The notes beneath the pieces were generated by a model, which saw nothing but the letters and a program-made list of their open reading frames with translations, made no database searches and was not told the origin of the DNA. A program made the translations under genes and the position numbers. A stretch of DNA of 64,000 nt from Yuukianura sp. NJ FZ-2021 (lineage: Eukaryota): contig JAJCTO010000010.1 of NCBI GenBank assembly GCA_046563655.1, forward strand, positions 620,001 to 684,000, written 5' to 3'. Of this stretch, positions 18,791-53,018 are shown piece after piece. Within the stretch, counting starts at the first letter, position 1; every line of letters starts with the position of its first letter.

Positions 18791-19037
18791 TCATGCAATT
18801 ATGCAAGGTTAAATGATGGCATTTTAAGATCTTTGGAAGACTTGTATTTGGTCCAAAGTCCGACCAGTTTTCAAGGACGGATGTGAGTCACGACCGTAAG
18901 TGCGCACGTGCGTACAAAGTCCAGAATTGTATTTTCATCGTCATTTCAACTTGTACTATTACTAGTCGACCCTAAAATTAGGTTTTGCGCATGTATATAT
19001 AGTTAGGTTTGAGTTGTAAGAAGTCAGTCAAAGAAAT

Positions 19038-19969
19038 ATGGAGGTCCTCATGAGTTATGAGGGGAGATTACAAACTTTTCGGAACGCTCAACTAAGATGG
19101 CCATTGAATTTTGTGACCCCGGAAGCATGTTCGTTTGCGGGATTTTACTACCTCGGAGTAGATGACAAGGTGGGTAATTTTCAGCTTTATGTGAAAAGAT
19201 AACGTGGGTAGATGACATGGTGGGTAATTTGCAAATTTCTTTAAAATTTTTAAAAAAAGTGTTAATATTTTTTCTGTCGTAAATCAGGTTGCGTGTCCGT
19301 ATTGCCGAGGTGTCGTCGGGGAGTGGGTGGTTGGTGATGAGCCGTTGTTGGAGCACCGCAAACATTTCCCACGTTGTCCTTATGTTGTAGTCATGACCGG
19401 TCTACTATCCGGGGTTGGGTTTGTTACCGTTCCGGATGTAACTGGGACCCACGGAATCGAGGCGACCGGAGCAACGAGAATTGATGTTTTCGAATATGTG
19501 AGCACAGGAACCGGTATGCGCAGCGCGGTAGCTTCTGATGTTTCCTACCGACCCTGACCAGCCGGGAACAGATGCTGCCAGTGCTGAAACGGGAGGAACC
19601 GAGTTGGTCGCAGCAACCGCGCCCGAAACCGACGTTCCCGGCGATGGAGGAGCCGATTTGGCCGGGGCTGCAACACGTAACGTGGCAGAAATAACTACCC
19701 TCGAAACTAATATACCCAGTGTAAGAGGAACTGATGTTGCCGGGACAACTGAACACGTTTTAACAGCGGCATCCGGCGCTTTGGTTTCTGGTGTTAGGAA
19801 AGACGACTCTGGCAACAGCCTTACTTGTAAGATTTGTTGGGACAAAGAAGCTTGCGACGTGTTCTTGCCATGTAAACATTTGGTTGCATGTCGTAAATGT
19901 TCATTGTCATTAAAAAGTTGTGCAGTTTGCAGAGAACCTATACTAATTAGATTTAGGGTGTATACCTAG
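19038..19969 (+). pseudogene. iap: IAP (BIR+RING), copy 1; exons 19038-19169 and 19288-19969, +1 frameshift near 19545
   Basis: Same structure as the intact copy at 35285-36215. Confidence 0.88.
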
Positions 19970-20245
19970 TCAAGTGTTGATATTTTGTGTCAAGTTTCCC
20001 AAGTCCTCCCACAACCCAATTCAAGTAAATGTTGAATTGAGTTGTGGGATGACTTTTGTTGCTGTGAGTTCGAATCCTACGTTGAGAAATGAATAAAAAA
20101 AATCGAATCCTACGTTGAGAAATGAATAAAAAAAATCGATTCAAGTTTTATGTTTTCGTTTGAGGTACGTTTTGTGAATTACTATTTAATGAAGTGAAAG
20201 TTTTGAGGAAGTGAGCATTTGCTGTGCGGGCTAAGAGGAAGAAGC

Positions 20246-25513: not shown

Positions 25514-25571
25514 AGCCAATTAGACTAAATGTCCTTCCAGTTAGTAGTTGTTTGGAGTTTGATTTGTTAGG

Positions 25572-26229
25572 ATGGAAATCCAATGTTCATTGCAGCATCC
25601 GTTTGTCATGGTGTTGGCCGGTCCTACACAAAGTGGAAAAAGTACATTGATAAAAAAGTTTTGGAACGTTTAGACGAAGTTGTTGAGCCAAAAATCAAGC
25701 GTGTAATCTACTGTTATGCCGAGGATGAGCCGGATTTTGCAAAAAGTTTAAAAGGAGTTAACAGGGAAAAGAAATTGAAATTGATTTTCGCCAAGGTATG
25801 GATCAAATTGATGTTGACATTGGAAACAAGACGCCAACCCTTGTTGTGTTGGATGACTTTATGGAAGACCTTGGATCATCTTTGGATATTTGTAGAATGT
25901 TTACTCGGGGTTCTCATCACCGTTCACTGTCTCTTATGATTACGATTCAAAATTTTTTCTTCAAAGGATGTAGGAATTTGACTTTAAATGCAAAATATGT
26001 TGCATTATTTCGAAATCCAAGGGATAAGACTATAATAAAATATTTGGGACGACAAATGAAAGGCGAAAAATCAAATTCGACGCTAGAAGAAGCATTTGAG
26101 GATGCTACAAAGAACAAGCCAAATAGCTATTTATTTTTAGATATGTCTCAAAGTCAAAATGATGACTTTCGAATAAGATCAAATGTATTTGCAGATCCAG
26201 AATCTTGTATAGTATATTTGAAAAAGTAA
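25572..26229 (+). pseudogene. Packaging ATPase, copy 1 (frameshifted)
   Basis: Homologous to 40770-41429 with homopolymer indels. Confidence 0.9.
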
Positions 26230-26235
26230 CATACC

Positions 26236-26730
26236 TTAGTTTCGTTTCAACTTTGACAGTCCTTCTGTGAGACAATCAAATAAATGAATTGGAATCACAA
26301 CACTAGATCCAGCATCGTAAACATTTTTAATATGTAAATGTGTGAGCGGTCCTTGGTCATTTCCTTGTTCATTGCCAATGTAGAGCTGCCAACCATCTTC
26401 CAAATTTACTCGTGGTGGTGGATGTGGTTTAGGAAATTCTTGACGAACTTCAACAACCATTGCCAAAGATGTGACTTTACGAGGAATCTTGGGAATTCGA
26501 ACTCGTTTGCGTTGTTTTTTTTCTTGGGTAGTATCCGTGAGTATATTTGGGTTTAGGTTAAGAAAATCTTGAATTGGAGAATGCATTTCGACTGGCTGGA
26601 GTTCCGACGTTTTATTGAGGTTACAGTTACAAGAAAAGGTTTCACAAACAGTAATTGTTGTAGTTGAATTTTTTTTTAAGCAAAAATTTGCAAAAGAACG
26701 CCACAGAGAGCAAATTTGACACGAGCTCAT
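26236..26730 (-). CDS. Maverick hypothetical protein, 164 aa (open in copy 1)
   Basis: ATG-to-stop ORF between ATPase and integrase; Cys-rich N-terminus, basic middle; frameshifted in copy 2. Confidence 0.6.
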   Translation of the reverse strand: MSSCQICSLWRSFANFCLKKNSTTTITVCETFSCNCNLNKTSELQPVEMHSPIQDFLNLNPNILTDTTQEKKQRKRVRIPKIPRKVTSLAMVVEVRQEFPKPHPPPRVNLEDGWQLYIGNEQGNDQGPLTHLHIKNVYDAGSSVVIPIHLFDCLTEGLSKLKRN

Positions 26731-27656
26731 GTCACGACGAAGTTAAACTGAAGACTGAGGAACGCGTTGCAGTTCTTCGTTGTAAAATATTCCAAATATG
26801 TCTTCACCTTTGCCGTCTTTTAACTTGTAAGTGACGGGAACGGAGTTGCAAACTTCAACAATCTGGAAAATTTCTTTTGTCCAGCTTTGGGCGTATCCCT
26901 TTTCAAAAAGTGTTTTATATTTACTAAGTAGTACGGAGTCTCCAACATTGAAGGTAGCAGGTTTCCGTTTCGTTTGGTTTTGTTTTGGTAAGTGTCCGTA
27001 CAAATTTAGAAATACATCAGTTTTTGTGTCGTCATTGACTTGGTTTGGTGTACATTTTATGGAGCGATGATATGTGTTGTTGTATGAAGTTACAATATTT
27101 TGCAAAACATCTAAGAATTTTGTGGTCTGATTGTGTGTCATATATCTCGCCAACCTTCTCATTAATGTTTGGTTAAATCTTTCAACAATAACTGTCTTCA
27201 GTTCTGATCTAGTACTAAAGAATGAAACAGAGTATTGTTTTAAAAGCTGTTTAACATTTCGATTTAAAAATTCTTTCCCTTCGTCAAATTTAATTGACTT
27301 TGGAGGGCCTCTTTTCTTAAAGATTTTTTGTAAAGCGTTTGCTACTTGACTCCCAGTTTTATTTTTTAAAGGGATGACGTCAGCGACTTTATCAATCAAT
27401 TTGTTTATTTGATCTTGGCCAATGCCCTATCAATTACAGTCCTGCAGCTCGTTTTAAGTATAAGAATCAGTATAACCTAGTCAAGTGTAAAAATGGTAAA
27501 GTTATTATAATAATAATAATCCGTAAGCATAATGGGGTCGAAAGAAAGTGTACATCTTTAAGGTCAGTTGTAATTGTAAGGTGGTAGTCATGGGGGAAAG
27601 TTGAGAGAAAGTTTAAAACAACAAAGACGTAGTCGCGGAGGTACAATTCACCGTCT

Positions 27657-30600
27657 TCATCTTCCCAGCGTTGACTCGAATGTTGACAGGACATTGTGGT
27701 TGAAATTTTGCAGGTTTTTGATAAATGTAATATCCTTGGCGTTTAAGTTGACCCAGGCTATTGGGCATTGGTTTGGCGGGAGTTTTAGTTGTGATCTGTG
27801 GGGTTCTGTCAGTGGACAAGTCCAGAGTGCATGGTAATACGAGAGTTGGTCTCCACAGTAACTGCAGGTCTTTTCCGTGAACTGACCAAAGTCGAGCCAT
27901 CTTCGGTTAAAATAGAGTAAGTTTGAGTTGAGTCTAATTTGAAGAATGGGAATCGTGAGATAGGAAGGAAATCGTTTCGAGAAAACTTCTGTTGCCGGGA
28001 ATTTCTGGCAGATATCAATGTAGTGAGGGGTGGAATGGGATAGCGCTGCATTTTTGATGTCTGATTCTTTGAATAAATTCCGAAATTTCTTCACAGTTGA
28101 GTTTTTCAAGGCTCTAATCACGGTATCGATACCCCTGTCGTATATTTCTTCCAGTCCGATCATCGCTAGGGAGGCTCTCAGCTGCGTGCACCAACTGTAT
28201 TTGATATCAGGGTGAATTGATGAAACTTTGCGTAGCTGGAGGTACGCGTTTTTCGTGAGGTCGGAACATTGGTTGGTGTGGAGTTTTGTGTAGAGGAGCC
28301 AGGCTCTTTTGACGACTTCGAATTGTAGTGGTGGAGACTCAGTTTCTAACCGGACAAAGAACCTGGGAGTAGTACATGGTAGTCGTAGGAGTCTTTTGAA
28401 GTAGCGCTGTTGGACCGTTTCTATGACGTCTGCGTGGGCTAGTCCCCATGTTTCGCAGTTATACAGTGTTGTTGATTTTACCAGTGAGCTTAATAGCGTT
28501 TTCATAGTCCATAAGTCAAAGTACTTCGTTTTCCTTAGTATATTAAGCGCTGCCCCCTGTGCTGTGGTGCCTTTCTCTATTGCGTTCCTTGCCGCTTTGT
28601 TGAATGTACCATTTGACTGGAATATTATACCGAGGTACTTGTACTCCGCAACGGTCTGGATCGGGGTTCCATTCCAAAGCAATAAGTCGTCCTTTCGTAT
28701 TCGTCCAGAACGACGGAAGACCATAACTTTTGTTTTGGTTAGGTTTACATGGAGACCTCTTGATTTGAAAAAGTTGGAAGTGAGTTTAATTTTCTCCTGT
28801 AATAGATCTTTGGATGGAGCAGTGATGACGAGGTCGTCCGCGTAGAGTAGAACATGAACGATACGCGAGCCTAGAGTATATCCTTTCAGTAGAGAAGATG
28901 AAAATTTAGAGACTAGGTCCTCGATAAACAGATTGAAAAGTGTGGGACTAGCAGAATCTCCTTGGAGCACTCCTTTCATAATCTTAATTGGTTCTGTGAG
29001 GCCCTCCCTGGTGTTAATTTGGGCAGTTGCGTTTTCATACAGAGACCTGAATACCTTTAGAAATTTGTTGGAGACTCCCAGATTACTGAGGACAGCCCAC
29101 AGTAGACTATGGTCTGGTGTGTCGAATGCCTGGGACAAATCGACAAAGGCGACGAACAGTTCCTCCCTTTTTAGGAGTTGGCATTGGATCATGGACATTA
29201 GAGTGAAGATATGATCTGTACATGATCTCGATTTTCGAAAGCCGGCTTGGAAATCTGATATTTTGTGGTTAGCGTTTATCCAGTTGGTGAGTCTTGAGTT
29301 GAGGATTTTGGTGAATAATTTCAGGATGGTGTTCATTAAGGATATTGGCCGGTAGTTTTCTGGCAAGTCTCTTGAACCCTTTTTGAAGAGCGGAAGAATT
29401 TGCGCCGTACACCAGTGGTTCGGTATTACCCCGCTTTGGAGAATGGTTTGGAAGAGTGTGACCAGGAATAGCAGAATATTAGGAGTGGCAGATTTCCAAA
29501 CTTCATTCGGGATTGTGTCTGGCCCTGTTGCTTTGTTCGATTTTAGTGTTTTAGTCGCCATTCTTATTTCTAGAGCTGTTATGTCGCGGTCAAGGATCTC
29601 ATTCTCTATCAGTCGACTTTCCGGTAGCATCTCCATTGGGGCCTCGTTGGTTTTGAAAAGCTTCTGGAAGTGTTGGAACCAAGTTTGCTTAGGGATTTTG
29701 TCTTGTGCGGTGTCTTGAGTTGTGTAGAATTTGACCGTCTTCCAGAAGCTTTTGGGGTCCTTTGAAGCGTGAAGTTGCGACAACAGTTTCGAATTAAATG
29801 TAGATTTCTTGTCTGCTAATTGTTGTTTGTAGTTCTTCTGGGCTTTTAGGTACAATTGGGCAAAGACCTCTTTGTTTTCCGTGTCACATCTTCGGAATTT
29901 GCGTATTGCGTTATTTTTTTCCCATTTGAGTGAGTTTAGTTCTGAGTCGAACCATGTTGGTTTATTTTTTGATACTTTAGGTTTTTTGTATACACCGACT
30001 GCCTTGGCAGTTTCAATGATTTTGTGTTGTAGGTGAAGGCTGGCTTGGATTGAGTCCTTAATTTCGAAGTTTAGGGAGTCTTCTAGGTGCTTGTAGAACT
30101 GGTGCTTTTCCATTTTGTCGGTCGACATGATTATTTTCTCGCGCGACATTCGTATGTTGTTGAGAGCTCGTTTAGTCGAACACTTTAGTGACAGAAAGAG
30201 AGGGAAGTGGTCAGAATGATGCCAGTCGAGGACTTTTAGGCTTTCGAGTTTTTCTCGAATGTTCGTGGATAGGAGAGCCAGGTCAACCACGCTACATCCT
30301 GCGTTTGCTGGGTTTATCATGGTGAATTCTCCGCTCTCGTCTCCTGGAGTCGCTCCGTTGCAAATTGTTAGATCACACTCAGCAGCTATTGTGAGTAAGT
30401 TTCTCCCGTTGGAATTTACCACTGTGTCCTTGCTTTTCCTTTTGATTAGTGGTGTAGAGTTTCTTTCTCCTATTCTTGAGTTTAGGTCGCCAATTACTAG
30501 GGCCGATGTGTTGGTGTATTTTACAAATTCGAATAGTTCTGATACTCGTTTTTGATTGGACTTGTCGGGTGGGATATACGCAAATAACAACTGGAATTGT

Positions 30601-30899
30601 GATGTACGATTCTGGATGTGTAGAAGGATTGAGTGTTCTGTTGTTGCAAGCACTGATACTTGTGCGTCTAATGAGTTGTGCCAGCCATAGATAAATCCGC
30701 CATAAGGACGGCCTTTGGCCTGCTTTTTAGCAAAAATTTGATGTATGGAGTAAGACTGTTGAAGTTTGACATTTTTGTAGTTTTCCCATTTCATTGATTC
30801 GGATAAGCAGAAGATAGAAGGTTGAAGAGAAAGAAATTCATTCCAGAAGGTAGGTCCAAGGTTATTTACACTTTTTGCATTCAGGTAGAATATTGTCAT
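27657..30899 (-). CDS. LINE ORF2: APE endonuclease, reverse transcriptase, C-terminal CCHC
   Basis: LSE, GDLNSR, DLAL, SDHFP; KATGPD, NYRPISL, QAGFR, DLSQAFD, QGDSASP, YADD, YKYLG; CSYC..HALWTC. Confidence 0.96.
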   Translation of the reverse strand: MTIFYLNAKSVNNLGPTFWNEFLSLQPSIFCLSESMKWENYKNVKLQQSYSIHQIFAKKQAKGRPYGGFIYGWHNSLDAQVSVLATTEHSILLHIQNRTSQFQLLFAYIPPDKSNQKRVSELFEFVKYTNTSALVIGDLNSRIGERNSTPLIKRKSKDTVVNSNGRNLLTIAAECDLTICNGATPGDESGEFTMINPANAGCSVVDLALLSTNIREKLESLKVLDWHHSDHFPLFLSLKCSTKRALNNIRMSREKIIMSTDKMEKHQFYKHLEDSLNFEIKDSIQASLHLQHKIIETAKAVGVYKKPKVSKNKPTWFDSELNSLKWEKNNAIRKFRRCDTENKEVFAQLYLKAQKNYKQQLADKKSTFNSKLLSQLHASKDPKSFWKTVKFYTTQDTAQDKIPKQTWFQHFQKLFKTNEAPMEMLPESRLIENEILDRDITALEIRMATKTLKSNKATGPDTIPNEVWKSATPNILLFLVTLFQTILQSGVIPNHWCTAQILPLFKKGSRDLPENYRPISLMNTILKLFTKILNSRLTNWINANHKISDFQAGFRKSRSCTDHIFTLMSMIQCQLLKREELFVAFVDLSQAFDTPDHSLLWAVLSNLGVSNKFLKVFRSLYENATAQINTREGLTEPIKIMKGVLQGDSASPTLFNLFIEDLVSKFSSSLLKGYTLGSRIVHVLLYADDLVITAPSKDLLQEKIKLTSNFFKSRGLHVNLTKTKVMVFRRSGRIRKDDLLLWNGTPIQTVAEYKYLGIIFQSNGTFNKAARNAIEKGTTAQGAALNILRKTKYFDLWTMKTLLSSLVKSTTLYNCETWGLAHADVIETVQQRYFKRLLRLPCTTPRFFVRLETESPPLQFEVVKRAWLLYTKLHTNQCSDLTKNAYLQLRKVSSIHPDIKYSWCTQLRASLAMIGLEEIYDRGIDTVIRALKNSTVKKFRNLFKESDIKNAALSHSTPHYIDICQKFPATEVFSKRFPSYLTIPILQIRLNSNLLYFNRRWLDFGQFTEKTCSYCGDQLSYYHALWTCPLTEPHRSQLKLPPNQCPIAWVNLNAKDITFIKNLQNFNHNVLSTFESTLGR

Positions 30900-30986
30900 G
30901 TTGTTTAAATTTAGTTCGCTGCAGGATGCTGTATTGAAATCTTGAGTTTTGTTCTTTTGACGTATATTGATAGGGCGGCCGAGTCC

Positions 30987-31757
30987 TCATTTTGGATTTG
31001 GGTAGGAGGATTGGAGAGTCGAGGAGTATGTTTTAGGAGCCGTGTTATTTGAAGGAGAAACTGTACGTGGGCGACTTCCTTGTCCGTTTTGTCGTGATTC
31101 CCGGTTCTTTTGCCTTTCCATTCTGGTTTCAATGGTCAGATCTTCTGTGATAGAGTAGATTTCTCTGTTTTGAATGAAGGTCTTTCTCAGCTGAAGGGCT
31201 TGCATGCGTTGTGCGAACGACGATAAGCGAACCTTAATTGGACGGGGTTTATCAGACGACGGGTTTATTTTTCCAATCCTAAATGCGTCTTCAACGTTCA
31301 CTCGGACATTGTAGTGGTTCAGGAAGTCGTTAGTGATGTTCATGGTGTTTTCGTTTGTAGCTTCTGGGAGTCCGTGGATCAGAACGTTGTTCCGTCTTAA
31401 TTCATCTGTGAGCCGAGAGTTCATTCTTTTTAGTTGATCAATTTCTTTTTGTTGGTTCTCAGTTTTCGTTTGTAGTTCATCGATTTGTTCTTGGTATTTT
31501 TCCAGTTTGAGTTCGATGGAGTCACATCTCGTGTCAATTTTTGATTCAACATTGCCAATTTTTGTTTCAACATTGCCAATTAGTTTTGTCATTGCAGACA
31601 TTAAATCGTCGTTCGAGAAGTTCGATCGTTTGGAACAAGGCTCGTTTCCATCGTTAGGCTCCGATTCCGCAGCTCGCTTGCTTCCTTTGCTTTGTGGTAG
31701 GAAGGATAGGGTGGTTTGAGACATTTTCTGCGACACTGGGGAGCGTGAGATTGGCAT
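30987..31757 (-). CDS. LINE ORF1 (coiled coil plus RRM-like)
   Basis: Heptad region, then RRNNVLIHGLPE, AFRIGK, PRPIKV, ITEDLT..R. Confidence 0.9.
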   Translation of the reverse strand: MPISRSPVSQKMSQTTLSFLPQSKGSKRAAESEPNDGNEPCSKRSNFSNDDLMSAMTKLIGNVETKIGNVESKIDTRCDSIELKLEKYQEQIDELQTKTENQQKEIDQLKRMNSRLTDELRRNNVLIHGLPEATNENTMNITNDFLNHYNVRVNVEDAFRIGKINPSSDKPRPIKVRLSSFAQRMQALQLRKTFIQNREIYSITEDLTIETRMERQKNRESRQNGQGSRPRTVSPSNNTAPKTYSSTLQSSYPNPK

Positions 31758-31835
31758 CGACTTGAATTACTACTGGATGGGAGTATTCTTTGAGCAGAAC
31801 TGCGGGGAAATATGTTCTCTTATGTTCTCTTGATC

Positions 31836-32297
31836 GAGAATTCCTTAAATGGAAATGGTTTTGGTCAAATCTCTGTAGTGAGAATTCCTTAATTGGAAAT
31901 TGTTCTTGACAAATCTCTGTAGTGAGAATTCCTTAATTGGAAATTGTTCTTGACAAATCTCTGAAGTGAGAATTCCTTAATTGGAAATTGTTCTTGACAA
32001 ATCTCTGAAGTGAGAATTCCTTAATTGGAAATTGTTCTTGACAAATCTCTGCAGTGAGAATTCCTTAATTGGACATTGTTTTCACCAATCTCTGAAGTGA
32101 GAATTCCTTAATTGGAAATTGTTTTGACAAATCTCTGAAGTGAGAATTCCTTAATTGGAAATTGTTTTGACAAATCTCTGAAGTGAGAATTCCTTAATTG
32201 GAAATTGTATATTGACAAATCTCTGAAGCGAGAATTCCTCAAATGGAAATTATTTTTGCCAAGTCTCTGAAGTGAGAATTCCTTAAATTGGAAATTT
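31836..32297. repeat. ~44-bp tandem repeat, 10 copies plus a partial, in the LINE 5' UTR
   Basis: Unit GAGAATTCCTTAATTGGAAATTGTTCTTGACAAATCTCTGAAGT; a second ~43-bp repeat (about 3 copies) at 32364-32483. Confidence 0.95.
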
Positions 32298-33366
32298 TCA
32301 AGGTAACTCCTGAATCGGAGATTTAAACGCGGGATGCGAGGATTGAGAAGATGAGATATCTGCTTGTCGGAGGATTAGATAGTGTTCCCAGAATCGGGAT
32401 TTTAGGTTGTCGGAGGATTAGGCAGGGTTCCCTGAATCGGGATTTTAGGTTGTCAGAGGATTAGGTAGGGTTCCCTGAATCGGGAAATCAGGGAAGAGGG
32501 TGGAGAGTGACCAAACCTCGGAAACGGCAGAAATGTCAGATTTGACGTGTTAACCGATTAATTTGCCGTTAACAGGGTCAAGTCAGTTATAGTTACAAGT
32601 GATTTGGATAGCGGACTTACTACTGGATGATCTAGGTGACTTTTAACTTGTTCGCCGGCTTATACAGAGGTACTGGAGCAGCTGGGGTGTCGATCCGATT
32701 AGTGTCAGCTGATTAAGAATAGTGGAAGTTGTTTTTACCATTAAGTGTTGTTAACCGATTCCAAACGGTGAGTCTTTGATTTCAGTCGATGCAGTAGCGA
32801 ATTCCGAGTGTTTTGATGTATGTCACTTGCAGGTAGGTCGATTATTTCACTGCTAAAAAAATGAGTTTGTCGGGAGCTCGCAATCCTTTGGCGACTTCGC
32901 GTCTGGACTTTCTCAGCGACTTTAGAAAAACCGTCAATACAAGTCAACAAGAACTTATGATTCGTATTTGCTTCAGAATACTTTGAAATATCGATTAGAT
33001 CAATTATATACTGATATCTTATGGACGGTATAAAAACTTTTCGTCTTTTGTAGCGTTTCCGAGCCGGTTTGTGAAGAGTATAAGCTGGAATTTGTTCTAA
33101 TGCTTTTAGTACATCAGTTTTTGTGACCCCACTCTTCTTTTGAACTTTAAAAGTTCCTTCTAATCCTGAAAATGCAAAACTTGAACGAGGATTGACGTAA
33201 TCCTTGCGTATTTTTTCTATTAAATGTTTCTGCTCCATTATCTAAATGAAATCTGACCCTAAGACTTGAAAATGCCAAACGTTTTATATGAGAGGTATAC
33301 ACACAATGAAATGAGTCATTTGAAGTTTCAACATGAAGCTGGCCACACGCATAAGTTCACACAATC

Positions 33367-34705
33367 ATGTCTACAACTGTGAAAGAAAACTCAGACTTTT
33401 TGAGATATTTAATCAAGTGTTCACCACAACAAAGAAAAGCGTTAATTAAATATGCTAGTAGTGGTGAAGTCAAAAGTATTTGTGAATGTGTTTTGAATAT
33501 ATACAAAAAAAATGTTGGTCTAAAAAAGTCTACAGTTGAAAAGTTACGTCCATTCAAAAGAACAATACTTTCAATTGTAAAGAAGAGACGCTCATCATTG
33601 GCAAAAAAGAAAAAACTTTTGTCTCAAAGGGGTGGTGCAATAATTCCGTTGCTATTAGGATCTATGATCCCAAGTGTTCTATCAGCCATCTTTCAAAAAA
33701 TGAAACGAATGCGTCTAATATCGGAATCAGAGTACAAGAACAAGTATGAAGAACCAAACAAAAGTTCCATAGAGTCACCAAAGATTGTGGGGGGTGAAGA
33801 TGAAGATTTGGAACACAAGAAGCAAACAATTTTATCAGTTGACGATGTACCAGATGATATCAAAGCTCTTTTATACTATGATTTTTCTCGCCGCCTACTC
33901 CAAAAAAAAAATTTTGTCAAATCGGCCAGTTTTAGTCAAGTCTATTTCTGAAACTAGTTCAAATTTGACATCAACTTCAAACACCAGTAGCAACAACAAC
34001 AACAACAACAATCAATCCAACTTGGTACAAAAAATTGAGTATGTTACAGAACCATACATTTTAAAACAAGTACCAGGAAAGGATGCCAAAAAGTTTATAA
34101 ACTTTATGAAATTGAGTAACATCAGCTGGAATTCAGACTTGGAAATTTTGATTGATAATAAGCGAATTCCTTCTTCAAATATCATCAATGTCCTCTCTCA
34201 ATTTATTTCATTTAAAAAGAAAAATTTGACCGAAAGGCAAAAACAAAATCTCCTATTTAATATACCAGTTGGATGGAATGAAGTTTATGAACATTTACAA
34301 AAATTTGAAGAAATCCAAACACCACCACAAACTGTTCGTAGAATTCTTGAAAAAGTACCAACAGGAGAAGTTGGTAGTAGAAGAGAAAATTTAACTACTA
34401 CAACAGTTGCCAGTGAACCAACAACCCCCCTTTCATCCCTTTTTAAAGGAGATTCTGAAGGAAATATTGAGGAGGAAGGGGATGATGATGATGATGTGGA
34501 AAGTAATACATTTGGTACACCACCAACCTTGTCTCCACAACAACATCAAAAATCATCTCCACTCAGATCTCTACCAATCGAAGACAGACTTCGAAAACGA
34601 GGAAACTTTACTACTACTACTACTACTACAAATGACAGTACAAAAAGTAAAAAAAAAATTGTCAAAAAACAACTTGCCAAAAGTTGGGAAGCATATAAAA
34701 ATTAA
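33367..34705 (+). pseudogene. Maverick PW-like and PZ-like genes, copy 1 (poly-A indels)
   Basis: Homologous to 43031-44365. Confidence 0.8.
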
Positions 34706-34852
34706 AAAAAAATTCTTTTTTTTCGTGTGTGTATTTGAAAAAAAAAATCCTTGCTTCCATGCTTGCAGGGATGCGCGCGCGCGCGGTCCCTGCTTTATCA
34801 TGGTGGGTTTTAAACCCAACAATGCTACGCTGGGTGTTACTCCCTGCCTGTT

Positions 34853-35036
34853 AGTAGCATGATAAGTGTGTCCAAGAACGTAAAACGTTTTAATTTCGAT
34901 TGGTGACTCAAGGTAAATTGCATTCTGTTTTTAAGTTTGAGGGTTTCAGGCATGAGTCATTGAGTATGGTTTATGTATCCTATTCCGGAATACGTTTCCT
35001 TTCGTAAGGTGACTAAGCGAAATAAGGCGGGAATAA
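34853..35036 (+). repeat. Left TIR of Maverick copy 2
   Basis: Inverted match to 52834-53018. Confidence 0.95.
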
Positions 35037-35284
35037 GTCATGCAATTATGCAAGGTTAAATGATGGCATTTTAAGATCTTTGGAAGACTTGTATTTGGTC
35101 CAAAGTCCGACCTGTTTTCAAGGACGGATGTGAGTCACGACCTTAAGTGCACACGTGCGTACAAAGTCCAGAATTGTATTTTCATCATCATTTCAACTTG
35201 TACTATTACTAGTCGACCCTAAAATTAGGTTTTGCGCAGGTATATATAGTTAGGTTTGAGTTGTAAGAAATCAGTCAAAGAAAT

Positions 35285-36215
35285 ATGGAGGTTCTCATGA
35301 GTTATGAGGGGAGATTACAAACTTTTCAGAACGCTCAACTAAGATGGCCATTGAATTTTGTGACCCCGGAAGCATGTTCGTTTGCGGGATTTTACTACCT
35401 CGGAGTAGATGACAAGGTGGGTAATTTTCAGCTTTATGTGAAAAGATAACGTGGGTAGATGACATGGTGGGTAATTTGCAAATTTCTTTAAAATTTAAAA
35501 AAAAAGTGTTAATGTTTTCTCTGTCGTAAATCAGGTTGCGTGTCCGTATTGCCGAGGTGTCGTCGGGGAGTGGGTGGTTGGTGATGAGCCGTTGTTGGAG
35601 CACCGCAAACATTTCCCACGTTGTCCTTATGTTGTGGTCATGACCGGTCTACTATCCGGGGTTGGGTTTGTTACCGTTCCGGATGTAACTCGGACCCACG
35701 GAATCGAGGCGACCGGAGCAACGAGAATTGATGTTTTCGAATATGTGAGCACAGGAACCGGTATGCGCAGCGCGGTAGCTTCTGATGTTTCTACCGAACC
35801 TGACCAGCCGGGAACAGATGCTGCCAGTGCTGAAACGGGAGGAACCGAGTTGGTCGCAGCAACCGCGCCCGAAACCGACGTTCCCGGCGATGGAGGAGCC
35901 GATTTGGCCGGGGCTGCAACACGTAACGTGGCAGAAATAACTACCCTCGAAACTAATATACCCAGTGTAAGAGGAACTGATGTTGCCGGGACAACTGAAC
36001 ACGTTTTAACAGCGGCATCCGGCGCTTTGGTTTCTGGTGTTAGGAAAGACGACTCTGGCAACAGCCTTACTTGTAAGATTTGTTGGGACAAAGAAGCTTG
36101 CGACGTGTTCTTGCCATGTAAACATTTGGTTGCATGTCGTAAATGTTCATTGTCATTAAAAAGTTGTGCAGTTTGCAGAGAACCTATACTAATTAGATTT
36201 AGGGTGTATACCTAG
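35285..36215 (+). CDS. iap: Inhibitor of apoptosis (single BIR, low-complexity linker, C3HC4 RING), 270 aa; exons 35285-35416 and 35535-36215
   Basis: Spliced product RLQTF..WP..AGFYYLGVDDK|VACPYC..W..GDEPLLEHRKHFPRC; RING CKIC..FLPCKHLVAC..C..CAVCR; TATA at 35241 and TCAGT Inr at 35271. Confidence 0.93.
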
Positions 36216-36459
36216 TCAAGTGTTGATATTTTGTGTCAAGTTTCCCAAGTCCTCCCACAACCCAATTCAAGTAAATGTTGAATTGAGTTGTGGGATGACT
36301 TTTGTTGCTGTGAGTTCGAATCCTACGTTGAGAAATGAATAAAAAAAAATCGATTCAAGTTTTATGTTTTCGTTTGAGGTACGTTTTGTGAATTACTATT
36401 TAATGAAGTGAAAGTTTTGAGGAAGTGAGCATTTGTTGTGCGGGCTAAGAGGAAGAAGC

Positions 36460-39400
36460 ATGGAAGGAATACACAGATTTGTATGTGACAATTGTGGAGA
36501 ACGTTTCGATTCACAAGATTCCTTTTGGGATCACGCTTTTGAACGTCATGTTTACGACCTTCGCATACCACGTCAAGGTATTTTGCTTTAAAAAAAAACA
36601 TTCGCTTTGGAGTATCTTATGAAGTTGTTTAAATTTGGTTAGAGTGGGAACCAAATGACGAACAAGTTGCGGGTCCAAGTCGTCCCAGGGTACCAGTCAA
36701 TGACGAATCTGGAGCAAGGAATTTGGAAAGACCAGTTGACCCAACTGTTGATGAAATTTTAGAAGGGCTGCTTGATTACGAAGGTAGTAGCAACAGAACA
36801 GAAATAGAGCGAAGTAGATGGCTTTGTGTTGAAATTAAGAAATTGATGTTTTTTGTAGAAGAATTGTCAGAAACTCAACAATCGGCCATCAATGCAGACT
36901 TGTCAAACTTTCGCGAGAGGTTCTGTTCATATTGCGCGATCAAGTTTGAGAACGCAGGAGAGCTCGACTACCATCGGTTTGAGTTTCATCGCGAACTCTA
37001 CACTGATCAACTGCAAGGTCAACAGTGGGGAGGAACTCAAAGTGGGCTAGAGATTCGAGAAGTTCAGAGGGCCGGACGTCGACGAAATGGCGCTGACGCT
37101 GGTATTGTACGTGAATTCGAGGTGGATTTGACTCCACAACTCTTTGCAGATGTGACGGGTGTGATGCGAAGTACAGCTAACGCACTGACAATTTTGGTGG
37201 AAGGACTTCTTCAGGAGTTTGGAGGCATCAAGTTGATTTGTACGTTGGTTGCAGAGATGACAAGAACATCAAGGGACCGACCAAGTGAAGCCGAGGTCGA
37301 AAGGTTTCCGTTCAATAGTTTTCTACATGGATGTTTTCATCAGAGTATGATTCAAACTATTCTGAGGCAAGTGTATTCTAAAATGAGATTGTCTATGGAA
37401 TCATTCGTGCACCACGGTTCGGGCTGGAAATTGAAGCGGTTCTTAGTACTTCAACTGAGAGTTTTTGAGTATAGGATGGACCGAGGGTCGAGTTGGATTC
37501 CGACTCCAAAAGTCATTCGCGACAAACGATGTATAAATATTCGTAACAATGACGAATTCTGCTTCAAGTACGCTATCATGGCAGAACTCAACCCGCTTTA
37601 CAAAGACCCAAATGTAGACTGGTACGCCTTTACCAATCCTAAAAATTATCAGATGGATCATTGTGAGATTGACTGGGGTTGTGTAAATTTTCCGATGACT
37701 ATCGCTCAACTTGACAAGTTCCACCACTTCAATCCACAGATTGCCGTAAATGTGTTTGGTTACGAACCTCGAGACGAACTTGCTCCAAGTTTGAAGGGGA
37801 AAAAGAAGATTGACATTTTTCCTCTCTACGTATGTCGTGAGGCAAGAGCTAAAAGTGTTGATTTGTTATTGTTAATCGACGGAAACAAGTCTCATTACAC
37901 ACTGTTGCGACAAAGTGATTACAATCCTACGGAGGGGCTGTCTCGATTGCTAGGAAAAGGTGAACGGTGGTATGAAAAGTTTGTGTGTCGTTTTTGTATG
38001 TGTTTTTCAAAAAGCGAAAAGAAATTGCAAAATCACCAAAAGTTTTGTGCGGCGTTGGACATACAACGCGTCGTTTTACCAACCGAAAAATACTTCACGT
38101 CAAAATTCATCGTGCAACGTCTTCCTGTGCCGTATGTCATATACTTAGACTTTGAAGCACTGTTAGTACCTACAGACGGGATTGGTACTCGACAAATTGG
38201 TGCCGTTTATAATGAACATTTAGACTGTGGGTGGTCAATGAGTATCATTGGGCCGGACGGTTATCTGGCGGACCGTGTTGTGACATTTTGTGGTCCGAAT
38301 GCTGCACTGAGGTTGGTTGACGAGCTCGTGTCTGTTGCCGGAAAGATATATCCAATTTTGAAAGAAGATGTAGGCCTCGACCCACGATGGACAGAATCTG
38401 ACTATGCTCACCTTTTGCTGGCTTCAACTCACTGTATTCATTGTGGACTGGAGTTTGTGGAAGGGGTTGACACTAAGTGCATTGACCACTGCCATGTTAC
38501 ATCAACCATTCGTGGAGTGAGTTGCGGTCCTTGTAACCTGAACGCCCAAGTTTGTTCATTCATTCCAGTTGTTTGTCATGGTTTTCGACATTACGATTCG
38601 AAATTTATTGTACAAGCGTTGCGTGCTAGTACAATGAAATCTGTGGAAGTTTTGGCGAGCAGCAGCACCGAGAAGTTTACTGCTCTTCGGTTGACAACCC
38701 ATGGAGGTCATGTTCTGCGAATGATTGATTCGTATCAGTTTATTAGTGCGAGCTTAGCAGAGCAAGTCAAAATGCTTGCCAAAGAAGGAAAAGACAAATT
38801 TGGTGTGACTTGTCATCATTTTCAACAGTACGGAAGTAAAATTGAATTACTTTTAAGAAAAGGGGTTTACCCTTACAGTTACTTTGACTCCATGGAGCGA
38901 TTTGATGAAACGTGTTTGCCACCTGCCGAAAAGTGGAAAAGCGATTTGACTGGAAAATCCATCAGTCCTGAAGATTTGGAACATGCGCATACGGTTTGGC
39001 GGGAATTTGGCTGTCAAACATTGAGAGATTATCACAACTTGTACGTTTCTCTTGATGTTTGCCTCCTGGCGGATTGTTTCCAGAATATGAGAAGAAGTAT
39101 GCTCGAGAGTTTCCGCCTGGATCCTGCTCACTACCTCACTCTTCCAGGAATAGCATACGACGCAGCAATGTTGGCAGGAAAAGTGGAGTACGAGTATCTG
39201 GATGAGATTGACAAGTACATGTATTTTGAACGCGGGATTCGGGGTGGAATTTGTTCTGTCGGACTACGTTATGCAAAAGCGAACAACCCTTACTTGGGGA
39301 ATTTATATGACCCCACGCTTCCATTGAGTTACATTTGCTACTGGGATGCAAACGCCTTGTACGCAACTTGTTTGAGGAACTACGTACCTTGGAAAGATTT

Positions 39401-40711
39401 TGTTTGGGAAAAGTCCTTGGAAAACAGAACAAGAAATTTGGATTGTGTTGTGAAGATGATCATGGATTTGGATGATTGTGGTCCGGAGGGATTAGTTTTG
39501 GAGGTAGATTTGGATTACCCACAAGAATTACATGATTCTCACAATGACTACCCATTAGCAGTAGAACGAAGTGAAATAACATACGAGTGGCTCTCTGACT
39601 ACACGAAAGAAGTTTTGAAGAACGTGGGGGCTACACCTGGATCTTGCAAAAAAACAAAACTTTTGGGGACGTTGTGTAACAAAACAAACTACATTGTCCA
39701 TTATCGACTTTTGAAGTTGTTTTTGGAGCTTGGACTGAAACTTGTGAAGGTTCACAGAGCCATACGGTTTACTCAGGCTCCATTATTTCGTGTATACACG
39801 GACATTTGTATAACACGTCGACGCGAAGCTACGAATCCGGTGGATAAGAACTTTTACAAGGCCATGGGAAACATTTTGGCGGGAAAAGTTTACCAGAATG
39901 TCCGGAAATATAGGCGGATCAACATTGCATTATCAAGAGAGAAGATGAGAGAGTATGCCCGAAAGCCAACCGTTGAGGACGTCAAAATCGTTCATGATGA
40001 GTGTGTTTTGTTTGTGATGAAAAAGTTGGCTGCTAGGCTGGACAAACCTATTTTTGTTGGACAGTGCATTTTGGATGATTCCAAATGTAGAATGTACAGC
40101 TTTTACTACAAGTGGTTAAAGCCGCGATATGGAGACAACATGAGGCTGATGTATACGGATACTGATAGTTTTTTGCTTCACATAAAGACGGAAGATGTTT
40201 ATGCAGATATTGCTGAAAGTGTGAGGAGGAATGAAGGCGTCTTTGACACATCAAAGTACGACAGAGCAAATGAAAAATTTGGATATTTGTGGAGCGAGCA
40301 ATTTGAAGGGGTTGGTGGTTGCTTCAAGGATGAATGCGCCAACGAAGTAATTTCGGAAGCAATAGCATTGAAGCCAAAAATGTATGCAATCAAGATGTTG
40401 AAGGAGGATGGGACCCAAACTCAGCTGAAGAAGGCAAAAGGAACAGTTCGCTCGGTTGTCGAGAATGAATTGGATTTTGAAGATTACAAAAAAGTTTTAG
40501 AAAACGGGCAGTTCAAGTCTTATAGTATGAATACAATTCGAAGTTTAAATCATCGTTTGTATACAACTACAATGTACAAAAAAGTTTGTCAGCATATGAA
40601 GATAAGAGTTTTTATTTGTCTCCAATTGATTCATTAAGATTTGGTCATTATAGAATTGAATTAGAAAAGAATTTGCATCAAATTGTAGACGGTATGGAAG
40701 AAGATGAATAA
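36460..40711 (+). CDS. Protein-primed family B DNA polymerase, ~1395 aa; exons 36460-36577 and 36643-40711; one-base poly-A frameshift near 40580
   Basis: Zn fingers, YLDFE exonuclease, endonuclease-VII-like C..C..DHCH..RG..C..CN, RKGVYPY, YWDANALY, YTDTDS, KPKMY; true C-terminus inferred from copy 1. Confidence 0.93.
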
Positions 40712-44365: not shown

Positions 44366-44514
44366 AAAAAAATTCTTTTTTTTCGTGTGTGTATTTGAAA
44401 AAAAAAAATCCTTGCCTCCATGCTTGCAGGGATGCGCGCGCGCGCGGTCCCTGCTTTATCATGGTGGGTTTTAAACCCAACAATGCTACGCTGGGTGTTA
44501 CTCCCTGCTGACCA

Positions 44515-44680
44515 CGTGGGTTTTAACCCTGCGTGCAACTTGGGTTTAAGCCCTGCGTGCAACTTGGGTTAAAGCCCTGCGTGCAACTTGTATTTAAGCC
44601 CTGCGTGCAACTTGGGTTTAAGCCCTGCGTACAACTTGGGTTTAAGCCCTGCGTGCAACCCGGGGTTTTTAACCCCTGTG
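44515..44680. repeat. 24-bp tandem repeat, ~6-7 copies
   Basis: Unit CCCTGCGTGCAACTTGGGTTTAAG. Confidence 0.93.
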
Positions 44681-46065: not shown

Positions 46066-47412
46066 ATGCCGAAAGTTAGGTCTTCTAAAGTTTCTCCTAG
46101 CACAGCTTCTTCTTCTTTGCCTTACACATTTGTTAGATCAGAAACACAACTCTTTGAAGAACCAATCTTTGATGTTAGTCTCGCATCAACCTCAGCTACG
46201 GAATTCCATTCAATCAACTCACTTTCAGACAATCAAGCCCCTCTGGAATTTTTTGTACAAGGAAATCAAACTGAACTAATCGACTTGTCTGAAACGAAAC
46301 TTTATTTAAAAGTTAAAATTGTAAAGTCCAACGGCACGGATTTGGATGACAACAGCATTGTTGCTCCAGCCAACAATTTCCTTCACTCGCTATTTCTACA
46401 GTGTTCCATATATCTCAATGAAGTTTTAATTACTCCTGCAAGTTTACAGTATGCCTACAGAGCATACTTGGAAACTTTACTCGGATATGGAAAAGAATAC
46501 AAACGCTCTCAAAGTCAATGCTCCCTTTTCTACAAGGACAAAGATCCTAAATGTACAGATGAAACAAAAGAAGATGGATTTAAACAAAGATACACATTTG
46601 CAGTCAAAAGCAAAATAATTGAAATGGTTGGACGTCCGTTTACCGACCTTTGTGTCCAAAACAAATTTCTCGTTCCTTCAATCGACTTACGCATTTCATT
46701 TTTAAGATCCACACCAGAGTTTTGTCTCGTTGCCAAAACAGCTGGTAACTACCAAGTTCAAATTCAAGATGCTCGCCTCATTGTACAACGCCATCAACTT
46801 CTTCCCTCATTACTAACTTCAATTCTCCAAACTTGGGAGCATGGAAGGCCAGCAACATATCCAATGAAACGAGTTGAAATTAAAACATATACTCTATCCC
46901 CTGGCACAGTTACCAACGTCAACGAAAATCTCATTTCTGGTGTCATTTGTGATCGACTACTAATTGGACTTTTACCTTCAGAAAACTACATTGGATCTAT
47001 AACCACAAATCCATTTGCATTTGAACACTTTGATTTGAGCTACATAAATGTTAGCATTAATGGTGACTCTGGAACTTCACTTGGGACACATGTAGACTTT
47101 ACGCAAGATCAATATGTTCAACTCTACCACAATCTATTTTGTAGTCTCGGAATTGCCAACGATGACGTTGGACTAGATTTGAACCGTGAAGAATTCAAAT
47201 CTCATCCGCTTATGCTATATAATCTCAGACATTCAAAAGAAGGTTTTCCTACTCCCAAATACGGCAACGTCAAGATTGATCTAAAATTTAAAACTGCACT
47301 CAAAAGCTCTGTCACCGTCCTTGTCTACGCCGAATTTCAATCCGTCCTACATATTGATTCCTCAAAATCAGTATACTTTAGAGACTACAGTCTTGCCAGC
47401 CTTCAACAATGA
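46066..47412 (+). CDS. Major capsid protein (double jelly-roll, PY)
   Basis: PLEFFV.G, IDLSETKLYLKVKI, PANNFLHSLF, YAYRAYLETLL, NPFAFEHFD. Confidence 0.92.
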   Translation: MPKVRSSKVSPSTASSSLPYTFVRSETQLFEEPIFDVSLASTSATEFHSINSLSDNQAPLEFFVQGNQTELIDLSETKLYLKVKIVKSNGTDLDDNSIVAPANNFLHSLFLQCSIYLNEVLITPASLQYAYRAYLETLLGYGKEYKRSQSQCSLFYKDKDPKCTDETKEDGFKQRYTFAVKSKIIEMVGRPFTDLCVQNKFLVPSIDLRISFLRSTPEFCLVAKTAGNYQVQIQDARLIVQRHQLLPSLLTSILQTWEHGRPATYPMKRVEIKTYTLSPGTVTNVNENLISGVICDRLLIGLLPSENYIGSITTNPFAFEHFDLSYINVSINGDSGTSLGTHVDFTQDQYVQLYHNLFCSLGIANDDVGLDLNREEFKSHPLMLYNLRHSKEGFPTPKYGNVKIDLKFKTALKSSVTVLVYAEFQSVLHIDSSKSVYFRDYSLASLQQ

Positions 47413-48598: not shown

Positions 48599-50484
48599 TT
48601 ACCAATTTCCATAGTCAGCAGCAATCGTTTCCAACTCCTTCACCAGCAAGTCCTTGGCTTCCATGTTCTCACCAAACTTAAATGTGAACGACTTTCCCGC
48701 CAAAATATGCCCTCCCCGGGTGCTTGCTGAACTCCCTCTTCCGTTTTCCATCACAACAAGAACCCCCAAAGCATCAGCTGCAGCCAAAATCCTGTTCCAG
48801 CATTCCTTGTCCTGCGAAAAGCTGAACCTTGTTTGCTGACAGACACCGGACAAAGAAATTTCTTGTAGGGCTGGAAGTCTCGGAACTAGTTCCAAGAACA
48901 CAACATGGTCAACCCCGCAAGAAAAATCAATGTGACCTCCAAGGCGGTCCAAATGTAGTTTTCTCAAATTTGGTAGAGATGCAATCGATCTTACAAGTTC
49001 CCCACGTAACACATTTGCGCCGACCAGAGAAAGTTTGTAAATGGACTTCGGATAATTCTGCTGACACACAGTTTTGTGGAACCCTTGAAATCTTCCGTGT
49101 CCAAAGAAGAATGGGCTGTGGCTGTGGGGAATAAACTCCAGACGCAATTCCGTCAAATTATTCAGTTCCTCCAACCCCTCAATCCTATATGGCGACCTCG
49201 CGTCCATCACCACGTTACTAACATCAAACTTGCGTAGGCTTTCTTTGCTATTATTGATTATTACAGCTAGCCGTTGCATTGAAACTCCGTCTAGTTCCAC
49301 CTTCAAGCATTCAAAAGCATTTGGCAAGTCCACCAACTTCCACCAAATACTAAAAAACGAGGACGGGAAAGCGTAGTGCGGAAGACAACTGATCTCCAAA
49401 ACCCGCAACTTTGGCAGCACCACGTTTGCCACATGGCCGATCTCTCCAAACTCCATATTGCTCCCCGTACATGTTAGGTTCAAAACTTCCAACTTCTCAT
49501 GATGCCTTTGGATGAATTCGAAGAAGCTGTGAACTGTGGCCGGCTTGAATTTGTGACACAACTGGAACTCGGAAAGTTGTGCTAGTACAAAGTCGGGTTT
49601 TGAGCACAAAATTTCAAACAACCCGGGCTGTTGGTGCCTTCCGGCATTTCCGTTGGACAAGCAGGAGTCAATCTTGAGTATTTTCAAGTTCTGGAAGTGG
49701 CTCACCATTTGAGACGGCGTGAATTGGGCACAATTGATCTTTCCAATTGCACCAACGTGAAAAAAGTTCATCGCAGGAACAAAGTAATACGTCCGAATTG
49801 CGTTCCGCAGACCGCCCATTGAGCAAGCGCCAGAAAATGTTACCTCCTGGACCAGGCTGCGAAACTTGATTGCAGGCAGCGCTGCGTCACGGTAGTTTTT
49901 CAGAACAAGATGCCTCACTTTCGACTCCTTCACATGCGGCGGGAGCCACTTGTTATAGCACACCAGCTTCCACAATCCCAACCTAAACCAAAAAAAAATC
50001 CTTCAAAAAAAAGCTCAGAATCGCAACAGGAAGCGCCTTGGGATATGTGACGAACCTGTCAACGCGTTTTCTCCACTCGCGAGACACAAGCCGCATTTTA
50101 CTCAGCTCATTATTATTCAAATACGACAGAACAAGGGCCAACATCTAGTTAACAAAAAAATTCATTCATTTTTTCGTATATATATATCCCTTCGCGGCTA
50201 AAGATTTTCCTGTTTGGGGAAACGTGAGAATCGCCCCCTTCCCCTCCTCGAAATTTCTCTAAAAAAAAAAACTGTCAACTCTTGCATTGCCCCGCATGAT
50301 GTAACCAGTCTCACCATGCCCCACTTGACGTTAATCCAAAAACACTCGAATTCTCACATAACCCCGCATGGTGGAGATTCTAAAACACCCAAATTCTCAC
50401 ATAACCCCGCGTGATGTCAATCCTACAAAACCCTACCCAACAGCTCACCTCATTCGGAAGGCTTCCCAACTTCGGGTCTTCCAT
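48599..50484 (-). CDS. F-box/LRR-like protein, 502 aa; exons 50484-50449, 50144-50056, 49982-48599
   Basis: Spliced N-terminus SLPNE|MLALVLSYLNNNELSKMRLVSREWRKRVD; repeated LxxLxL units (NLKILKI, KLEVLNL, KLRVLEI, NLTELRL, NLRKLHL, ALQEISL). Confidence 0.85.
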
Positions 50485-52370: not shown

Positions 52371-52833
52371 GGTTTTTTCTTTTTTTTTTTTTACGACAGA
52401 GATTGACAGCACAAACTCAACTTACTTTCAAATTAACTTTCAACTTACAACAAACCTCTTTATATCTTACGAACGAGGCGGACTTAAAAACCAAAGCATT
52501 TAGAGATTGTGCAACTAAACAAAATACTCCAGCGGGGTCGAAGGTTGGAATCCTAACGCTCCAAGCAATTGTCACAGTGTCACACGGACAGAAACTACAA
52601 ATTTCTGTCCACATCCCAAAAGCATGCCAAGGACGTCCAACACTCAAATTAACATCATGTTTTGTCATGTGAATGACTCAGTTTTCAGATATCTGATTTC
52701 AACAACAAAATGTCGTCAAGAACTGGCACAGCAAACTTACGATCTGACTTAACTTAAAAACTTAACGATCTTAACTTAACCTTCGTGAGTCACCCCCACA
52801 GACCAAAAACGCGCGAACGAATCCGGAACGTTT

Positions 52834-53018
52834 TTATTCCCGCCTTATTTCGCTGAGTCACGTTACGAAAGGTTAACGTATTCCGGAATAGGATACATAA
52901 ACCATACTCAATGACTCATGCCTGAAACCCTCAAACTTAAAAACAGAATGCAATTTACCTTGAGTCACCAAACGAAATTAAAACGTTTTACGTTCTTGGA
53001 CACACTAATCATGCTACT
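52834..53018 (-). repeat. Right TIR of the Maverick
   Basis: Ends ...CATGCTACT; inverted copy of both left TIRs. Confidence 0.95.

Follow-up and report, generated by a model that had tools for sequence, protein, structure and literature searches.

A probable intron-split, single-BIR inhibitor-of-apoptosis gene at the left end of an adintovirus-like Maverick/Polinton element

What kind of gene stands at the left end of a mobile element when an intron cuts it through the middle of a conserved domain, and what is to be made of an intron that holds a second copy of its own splice donor? Both questions are raised by the window analysed here, a stretch of 64,000 nucleotides from Yuukianura sp. NJ FZ-2021 (assembly GCA_046563655.1, contig JAJCTO010000010.1, positions 620,001 to 684,000), which holds two copies of such an element, a decayed one (copy 1) followed by a better preserved one (copy 2). 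We think that the gene in copy 2 is probably a real protein-coding member of the inhibitor of apoptosis (IAP) family, with one BIR, a disordered linker and a RING, and that it belongs, as an accessory gene specific to its lineage, to an integrated Maverick/Polinton (adintovirus-like) element. Mavericks and adintoviruses are suspected of being real animal viruses, and their host-interaction genes have barely been described; this locus offers one example in full detail, in which exons and intron are resolved, candidate promoter elements are located and the domains are typed.

Gene model, domains and relatives

The gene is modelled as two exons that meet inside the BIR (Table 1). Joined by their coordinates in a script, they encode a BIR and RING protein of 270 amino acids. 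The Pfam BIR profile (PF00653, cut-off 22.9 bits, 70 positions) is matched by exon 1 at positions 1-36 with 19.3 bits and by exon 2 at positions 37-69 with 32.4 bits. Among solved structures in the PDB, residues 20-43 of the cIAP1 chain 7qgj_A are matched by exon 1 and residues 45-77 by exon 2, and in the XIAP chain 4j3y_A residues 10-46 are likewise followed by residues 48-81. The spliced BIR also aligns with cellular IAPs, at up to 82.9 bits, with no gap across D-D-K/V-A-C. Three independent comparisons, with Pfam, with solved structures and with cellular IAPs, thus place the predicted junction at the exact site. The intron has a G+C content of 30.5%, lower than that of exon 1 (44%) and of the neighbouring stretch of exon 2 (56%), and it contains stop codons in the exon-1 frame, an unspliced translation running through DDKVGNFQLYVKR to a stop. 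The zinc site C-x2-C-x16-H-x6-C, as read from the translation, is complete in exon 2, and the RING (PF13920) scores 44.2 bits against a cut-off of 27, its top PDB matches being the RINGs of cIAP1, cIAP2, livin and XIAP.

To which type of IAP does the product belong? The best-matching domain is BIR1 in all seven two-BIR proteins examined and the second BIR in all four examined proteins with at least three BIRs; the product therefore looks like a DIAP1-type IAP that has retained BIR1 and the RING. A word-based search returned four proteins with E <= 0.001 among 897 candidates, the best of them 25% identical overall, and an exhaustive HMMER search returned 3902 proteins with E <= 0.001; of these, 577 reached E <= 1e-10, and not one reached E <= 1e-30. 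Viral contigs searched with the IAP protein gave four pattern matches, none of which was confirmed. For the source lineage, the returned proteins were ranked by the spliced BIR and the ten best were looked up; six of these carry a source name and four are unnamed Logan proteins. Five of the six named proteins are arthropod or tardigrade IAPs (Folsomia candida, Limulus, Paramacrobiotus, the spider Uloborus and the tick Haemaphysalis), and the sixth, a JGI entry, has a domain description only. BIR identity amounts to 50.6% over 77 amino acids with Folsomia candida and to 54.4% over 68 amino acids with Limulus, and RING identity to the arthropod IAP matches is 52-56%. The closest named match of the predicted protein is an arthropod (springtail) one. 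The window has one ordinary host gene, VOMI (58346-59038, minus strand), whose best named relatives are springtail (Orchesella) proteins; these matches fit an origin of the IAP in the host lineage, at identities too low to name the donor.

The linker between BIR and RING is of low complexity, with 22 T, 19 G, 19 A and 18 V among its 143 amino acids. Six of its 11 aspartates stand directly before V or A, and [TS]D[VA], a motif picked after seeing the data, occurs four times, a count reached by 0.2% of 20000 shuffles. Tandem Repeats Finder found no DNA tandem repeat in it. An earlier note on this DNA, made from the letters alone, had described a single-BIR IAP split in both copies by a 118-bp phase-0 intron between D-K and V-A-C, placed first after the left terminal inverted repeat (TIR) and having a T/G/A-rich linker with TDV/TDA repeats. 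This description stands: the intron is read directly, copy 1 included, the Pfam halves of the BIR are contiguous (36/37) and accompanied by the RING, no coding sequence lies between the TIR and the ATG, and the composition and motif counts of the linker agree.

Signals that could serve expression surround the gene. In the candidate core promoter, an arthropod-type initiator-like TCAGTC lies 32 nt downstream of the TATA at 35241, there is no ATG between this candidate and 35285, and the start codon is flanked by A at -3 and G at +4. Palindromic heptamers of the form TGA(C/G)TCA are concentrated at the element ends: 12 of the 18 matches in the window lie in about 0.85 kb made up of three terminal regions (18657-18890, 34904-35137 and 52674-52967), and the count for the whole window is mildly high (18 against 11.7 expected). 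They may be AP-1-type enhancer sites or binding sites of a protein of the element. We infer that these signals fit transcription of a terminal, possibly stress-responsive gene by the host RNA polymerase II. They are silent on timing, and the "early" expression proposed in the earlier note is plausible. Between the stop codon of the IAP and the AATAAA there is a near-perfect inverted repeat (CCCACAACCCAATTCAA ... TTGAATTGAGTTGTGGG, 36254-36297), and near the poly(A) signal copy 1 has about 34 nt more than copy 2.

How would such a gene act? Host RNA polymerase II would transcribe it from the TATA and initiator promoter just inside the TIR, and removal of the 118-nt intron through the upstream donor would give the 270-aa protein, whose BIR would bind caspases or antagonists of the IAP-binding-motif (IBM) type and whose RING would ubiquitylate them. 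The IAP may in this way shield an infected or reactivating cell from caspase-dependent death while the element replicates. The IAPs of baculoviruses, entomopoxviruses and iridoviruses block cell death by binding caspases or their antagonists and by ubiquitylation, and adenovirus genomes carry the anti-apoptotic E1B-19K at their left end. For the present IAP, anti-apoptotic activity is plausible, judged from its domain membership. The gene would have been taken from an arthropod host lineage, and it may have been captured as genomic DNA or have gained its intron later, because the polymerase and F-box genes of the element have short introns as well.

Table 1. Positions of the gene, its signals and the main parts of the element (coordinates of the window; TIR, terminal inverted repeat)
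Feature	Position	Strand	Description
IAP of decayed copy 1	19038..19969	+	Same intron, both donor repeats, linker frameshift, no in-frame RING
Left TIR	34853..35036	+	Alignment to reverse complement of 52834-53018
TGA(C/G)TCA heptamers (three)	34904, 34953, 35131 (34904..35137)	.	Upstream of IAP promoter
Core promoter candidate	35241..35276	+	TATATATA at 35241-35248 (TATA) and TCAGTC at 35271-35276
IAP exon 1	35285..35416	+	44 codons, ATG at 35285, ends GAC AAG; N-terminal half of BIR
Donor-region repeat A	35405..35427	+	12 last nt of exon 1 and 11 first nt of intron; authentic donor 35417
IAP intron	35417..35534	+	118 nt, GT..AG, phase 0, from GTGGGT at 35417 to AAATCAG at 35534
In-frame TAA	35447..35449	+	Kept if downstream donor is used or intron is retained
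Donor-region repeat B	35455..35477	+	Duplicate donor GT 35467; 22/23 identical to A
IAP exon 2	35535..36215	+	Starts GTT GCG TGT (V-A-C), 226 codons, TAG at 36213-36215
Exon 2, C-terminal half of BIR	35535..35633	+	Four zinc ligands, Pfam BIR positions 37-69 of 70
Exon 2, low-complexity linker	35634..36062	+	T/G/A/V-rich, 143 aa, 55% G+C
Exon 2, IAP-type C3HC4 RING	36066..36188	+	PF13920
Polyadenylation signal candidate	36338..36343	+	AATAAA, 123 nt past stop codon
Protein-primed family B DNA polymerase (pPolB)	36460..40711	+	Exon 1 36460-36577 (C2H2 finger), 65-nt intron 36578-36642
Double-jelly-roll major capsid protein	46066..47412	+	AlphaFold2 model and Foldseek
F-box/LRR gene	48599..50144	-	F-box exon 1 50144-50056, intron 50055-49983, 460-aa LRR-like body
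Right TIR	52834..53018	-	Pairs with left TIR

The second splice donor

The 23-mer that spans the boundary of exon 1 and intron, GTAGATGACA[A/T]GGTGGGTAATTT, begins at 35405 and again at 35455, and in copy 1 at 19158 and 19208, so that repeat B follows repeat A by 50 nt in both copies. These four matches in the window compare with 0.00 expected from 100 shuffles, and there are none in viral contigs. The only mismatch between A and B is at donor position -2, where the authentic donor has A and the duplicate has T, and from -1 to +11 the two are identical. The GT at 35417 and the GT at 35467 are two candidate donors for one acceptor. Read-through from exon 1 meets TAA after 10 codons, upstream of 35467, and splicing from 35467 is predicted to remove a 68-nt intron and to retain 50 nt that include this TAA. 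Much of this had been anticipated in the earlier note, which pointed to a near-copy of the donor region 50 bp downstream, to the stop that its use would include and to the 68 nt left of 118 after subtraction of 50, a length like that of the other introns: 22 of the 23 bases agree in both copies, the TAA is in frame, and the introns modelled elsewhere in the element measure 65 and 73 nt.

Could the two donors form a switch? Their competition might be regulated, turning the IAP on and off or setting its dosage, with the upstream donor giving the IAP and the downstream one the 68-nt intron and an mRNA whose reading frame is 54 codons long. In favour of this, the duplicate donor is genuine, present in both copies and far past chance; it shares every base of the authentic donor from -1 to +11, its intron would be of the size usual in the element, the retained 50 nt carry an in-frame stop, and a near-perfect 23-mer within otherwise unrelated sequence could reflect selection. 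Tandem donors with a shared acceptor are used for large T and small t of simian virus 40 (SV40), for E1A of adenovirus and in the small intron of the parvovirus minute virus of mice (MVM). Yet the RNA around the donors folds in an ordinary manner (z = 0.46; 131 of 200 shuffles fold at least as well), and the two copies are about 98% identical overall, so that identity of the repeats between them is uninformative on conservation. Moreover, the protein and viral contig searches yielded no diverged relative, and the sole difference between A and B weakens the downstream site at -2, which a tolerated relic would fit equally well. We consider a regulated switch unlikely.

It is more likely that an insertion of 50 nt left the second donor behind as a by-product that is tolerated. 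These additional 50 nt, with the donor that they bring, would represent an insertion or duplication that lengthened an intron of about 68 nt; the second donor would at most make splicing leaky, yielding some non-productive mRNA, and a designed switch would not be needed. Between the copies, the first 83 nt of the intron, which hold both repeats, are identical, and four differences lie in its 3' part. The successive 50-nt units agree at 33 of 50 positions, that is, at 22 of 23 in the repeat and at about 11 of 27 after it, and, with three mismatches allowed, the 27-nt spacer recurs nowhere else in the window. We judged this agreement too low for a plain tandem duplication of 50 nt. Recursive or nested splicing via the second donor was also rejected, there being no acceptor at a usable distance after the first donor, as were the other GT sites, at 35421 and 35471 (GTAATT) and at 35451, whose products are out of frame or contain the stop.

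The duplicated donor is a simple case of possible splice-level control, and a more elaborate form of such control can be imagined. The element might dose its captured IAP by unproductive splicing, a selected duplicate donor competing with the authentic one and the state of the cell setting the level of full-length protein, for example through stress signalling that also acts on the TGA(C/G)TCA clusters, and the T-D-V/A linker might add caspase-bait sites. We hold this to be quite unlikely; if true, Mavericks and adintoviruses would thereby have their first described case of an anti-apoptotic gene under the control of splicing.

The carrier element and the standing of the gene

Copy 2 has a length of 18.2 kb, with TIRs of 184 and 185 nt, which are 96.8% identical in a local alignment and share a 144-nt core that is 99% complementary. 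Its pPolB has 535 homologues with E <= 0.001, the best of them 53% and 49% identical, and those with names come from molluscs, thrips and ants and are labelled as uncharacterised or DNA-polymerase proteins. The phase-1 intron of this gene fits the downstream frame and joins an exon with a C2H2 finger to the main frame. An rve integrase (PF00665) scores 47.6 bits against a Pfam cut-off of 32.6. Matches below cut-off hint at a packaging-type ATPase (AAA_14, 25.7 against 27 bits; Adeno_IVa2, 16.6 against 21) and an adenovirus-type protease (Peptidase_C5, 20.8 against 21.3). The AlphaFold2 model of the capsid protein, built from six aligned sequences, has a predicted local distance difference test (pLDDT) of 62 and a predicted template modelling score (pTM) of 0.66; Foldseek matched it with probability 1.00 to the major capsid protein of Sputnik (E 7e-15) and to those of an iridovirus, PBCV-1, mavirus and PRD1, and its top matches in BFVD, likewise at probability 1.00, are a protein of Cotesia bracovirus (E 8e-23) and an adintovirus capsid. 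The carrier can be classed as a Maverick/Polinton of the adintovirus kind.

Near the right end, the F-box/LRR gene (PF00646, 24.0 bits against a cut-off of 20.5) has a 73-nt phase-2 intron that fits the downstream frame. It appears to be a second host-like accessory gene, and with the RING of the IAP it brings to two the predicted genes of the element that are related to ubiquitin ligases. An IAP at one end and an F-box/LRR gene at the other resemble the genes for host range and anti-defence at the genome ends of larger DNA viruses, and the accessory genes of such elements would depend on host splicing.

Two further observations concern the element. The polymerase contains an Endonuclease VII-like insert (PF02945, 28.3 bits; 38380-38540, residues 583-636 of the open reading frame (ORF) 36633-40637), and both this insert and the N-terminal C2H2 finger on a small exon of its own are common to many of the polymerase homologues. 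Between the accessory ORFs and the capsid module, at 44479-44670, there is a 24-nt tandem array of at least six units (CCCTGCGTGCAACTTGGGTTTAAG), and copy 1 is truncated at the equivalent of 44508, where this array begins.

Copy 1 occupies 18603-34847, its IAP lying at an offset of -16247, and over four aligned blocks it shares 97-99% identity with copy 2. Its polymerase is interrupted by an insert of about 1 kb (21785-22795) that is 78% similar to 62355-62725, and its integrase by one of 5.5 kb (27391-32913) with a reverse transcriptase of the long interspersed nuclear element (LINE) type and a 44-nt tandem array. It ends directly against the left TIR of copy 2, an abutment that may be an assembly join. 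The surroundings of the two copies (1-18600 and 53019-64000) are transposon-rich, with BEL/Pao elements at 2604-5392, 7687-12909 and 55064-56812 and a Ty3-type element at 13527-18596. In copy 2, the polymerase frame changes at an A-run at about 40570-40580, and a conserved C-terminal motif (LS..DK....L....SL..GH) is continued over some 45 codons in a different frame. The A-run (25379 in copy 1) is not of equal length in the two copies, and the frame change may be genuine or may stem from a homopolymer sequencing error. The element family has been active recently, and neither copy in the window is demonstrably whole. With copy 1 heavily decayed, the polymerase frame of copy 2 broken and no matching target-site duplication, the description of the element in the earlier note as a productive virus rather than a pure transposon was overstated.

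How widespread is the IAP among related elements? The comparison set comprised 93 related polymerase loci (651 kb) from metagenomes and IMG/VR, 26 of which extend at least 2.9 kb upstream of the polymerase core. Searched by tblastn, these loci gave the polymerase in 93 cases, the integrase in 31, the ATPase in 16, the protease in 7 and capsid-module genes in 5-7, and neither the IAP, nor the F-box/LRR gene, nor four other ORFs in any; the integrase, ATPase and protease homologues are syntenic. A hidden Markov model (HMM) of the BIR, built from 174 domain segments, detected the two halves of the BIR in each window copy, had no further match in the window, and found no BIR in the 651 kb of the set. 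Because a BIR is present in none of the 93 loci, the IAP is a lineage-specific terminal accessory gene.

The same absence would also suit a gene that is passive cargo, or a decaying fragment of a captured host gene, with no role in the life cycle and open in one copy by chance. The frameshifted IAP of copy 1, the polymerase frame break of copy 2, a region that is a graveyard of transposons (with reverse transcriptases of BEL/Pao, Ty3 and LINE type) and the low-complexity sequence in place of the expected second BIR all favour such a view. Against it, copy 2 is intact in its 270-codon frame, in the zinc ligands of BIR and RING, in its splice sites, in its TATA and initiator and in its AATAAA. 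Furthermore, the gene has the terminal accessory position used by adintoviruses for host-interaction genes (PMC8502044), and independent adintoviruses also bear IAPs (PMC8502044; bioRxiv 10.64898/2026.07.28.741253). Mere cargo is, in our judgement, an improbable explanation.

It is very unlikely that the protein is mainly a RING E3 ligase acting like DIAP2 and cIAP1/2 in signalling, innate-immune or other, or redirecting host ubiquitylation together with the F-box protein, rather than primarily a caspase inhibitor; in the PDB, cIAP1 and cIAP2 are the closest matches to the RING and to part of the BIR, and an F-box/LRR protein is encoded at the other end of the element, but the BIR is of the type of DIAP1 BIR1 and XIAP BIR2, which bind effector caspases and IBM proteins, and no UBA or CARD domain was found in the Pfam scan of the IAP.

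A real, lineage-specific IAP gene remains the reading that we prefer, and several points weigh against it. Exon 1 by itself falls under the Pfam cut-off for the BIR. No IAP homologue nearer than about 50% in its domains was found among 1.84 billion representatives, and the linker has no family match in Pfam and no relatives. In copy 1, a one-base difference of length in the linker shifts the frame, and exon 2 meets a stop 89 codons on, short of the RING. The element that bears the intact IAP has a break in its polymerase frame close to the C-terminus, no matching target-site duplication was found when the TIR flanks of the copies were checked, and the left TIR of copy 2 abuts a truncated copy 1; the IAP may belong to a dead element. 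A repeat of 22/23 beside an unrelated spacer of 27 nt is unlike an old simple tandem duplication under neutral decay, and the reading of the second donor as a by-product is therefore not secure. Finally, we infer transcription, splicing and timing of the IAP from the sequence.

Comparison with known systems

The cellular DIAP1-type IAPs of arthropods, such as the BIRC7-like protein of Folsomia candida (XP_021966658.1) and the IAP of Limulus, resemble the element IAP in that their BIR1 (or the second of three) is 47-54% identical to its BIR and in that the RING is C-terminal in both. They differ in having two or three BIRs, whereas the element IAP has the 143-aa linker in the place of the next BIR, and its gene sits within a mobile element.

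The early genes of small DNA viruses offer a parallel for the intron. SV40 T/t, adenovirus E1A and MVM likewise combine two donors with one acceptor in a short intron, and the choice of donor sets the protein. Both products are functional there and their usage has been demonstrated, whereas the second product here is a predicted truncation of 54 amino acids.

The IAPs of large DNA viruses of insects (Op-IAP and Cp-IAP of baculoviruses, and those of entomopoxviruses and iridoviruses) are virus-borne combinations of BIR and RING, presumably derived from arthropods, and are expected to block apoptosis, as would be the case here. They are set apart by genes that are not known to contain introns and that mostly encode two BIRs. 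The TATA and CAGT-type core promoter of the element also resembles the early promoters of baculoviruses.

The closest parallel to the element as a whole is found among adintoviruses and animal Mavericks, which share with it a pPolB, an rve integrase, a double-jelly-roll capsid, terminal repeats and an accessory IAP, and whose adenain-like protease and packaging ATPase have putative counterparts in it (PMC8502044; bioRxiv 10.64898/2026.07.28.741253). IAP and Bcl2 homologues were noted in adintoviruses by Starrett et al. 2021 (PMC8502044), in whose main text the strings "splic" and "exon" are absent and the single "intron" refers to group II intron maturases; its supplements may show comparable genes. 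An IAP also appears in leafhopper adintovirus maps, according to a figure legend of a 2026 preprint (bioRxiv 10.64898/2026.07.28.741253). In the parts seen of these two sources (PMC8502044; bioRxiv 10.64898/2026.07.28.741253), such IAPs are just listed among accessory genes, whereas the one described here is split by an intron with a duplicated donor and has a single BIR. Our literature search on Maverick/Polinton and "inhibitor of apoptosis" found no detailed description of such a gene. An adintovirus-borne IAP is thus known in kind, and what is new is that this member is resolved, contains an intron and a duplicated donor, has a single BIR and is paired with an F-box gene at the opposite end of its element.

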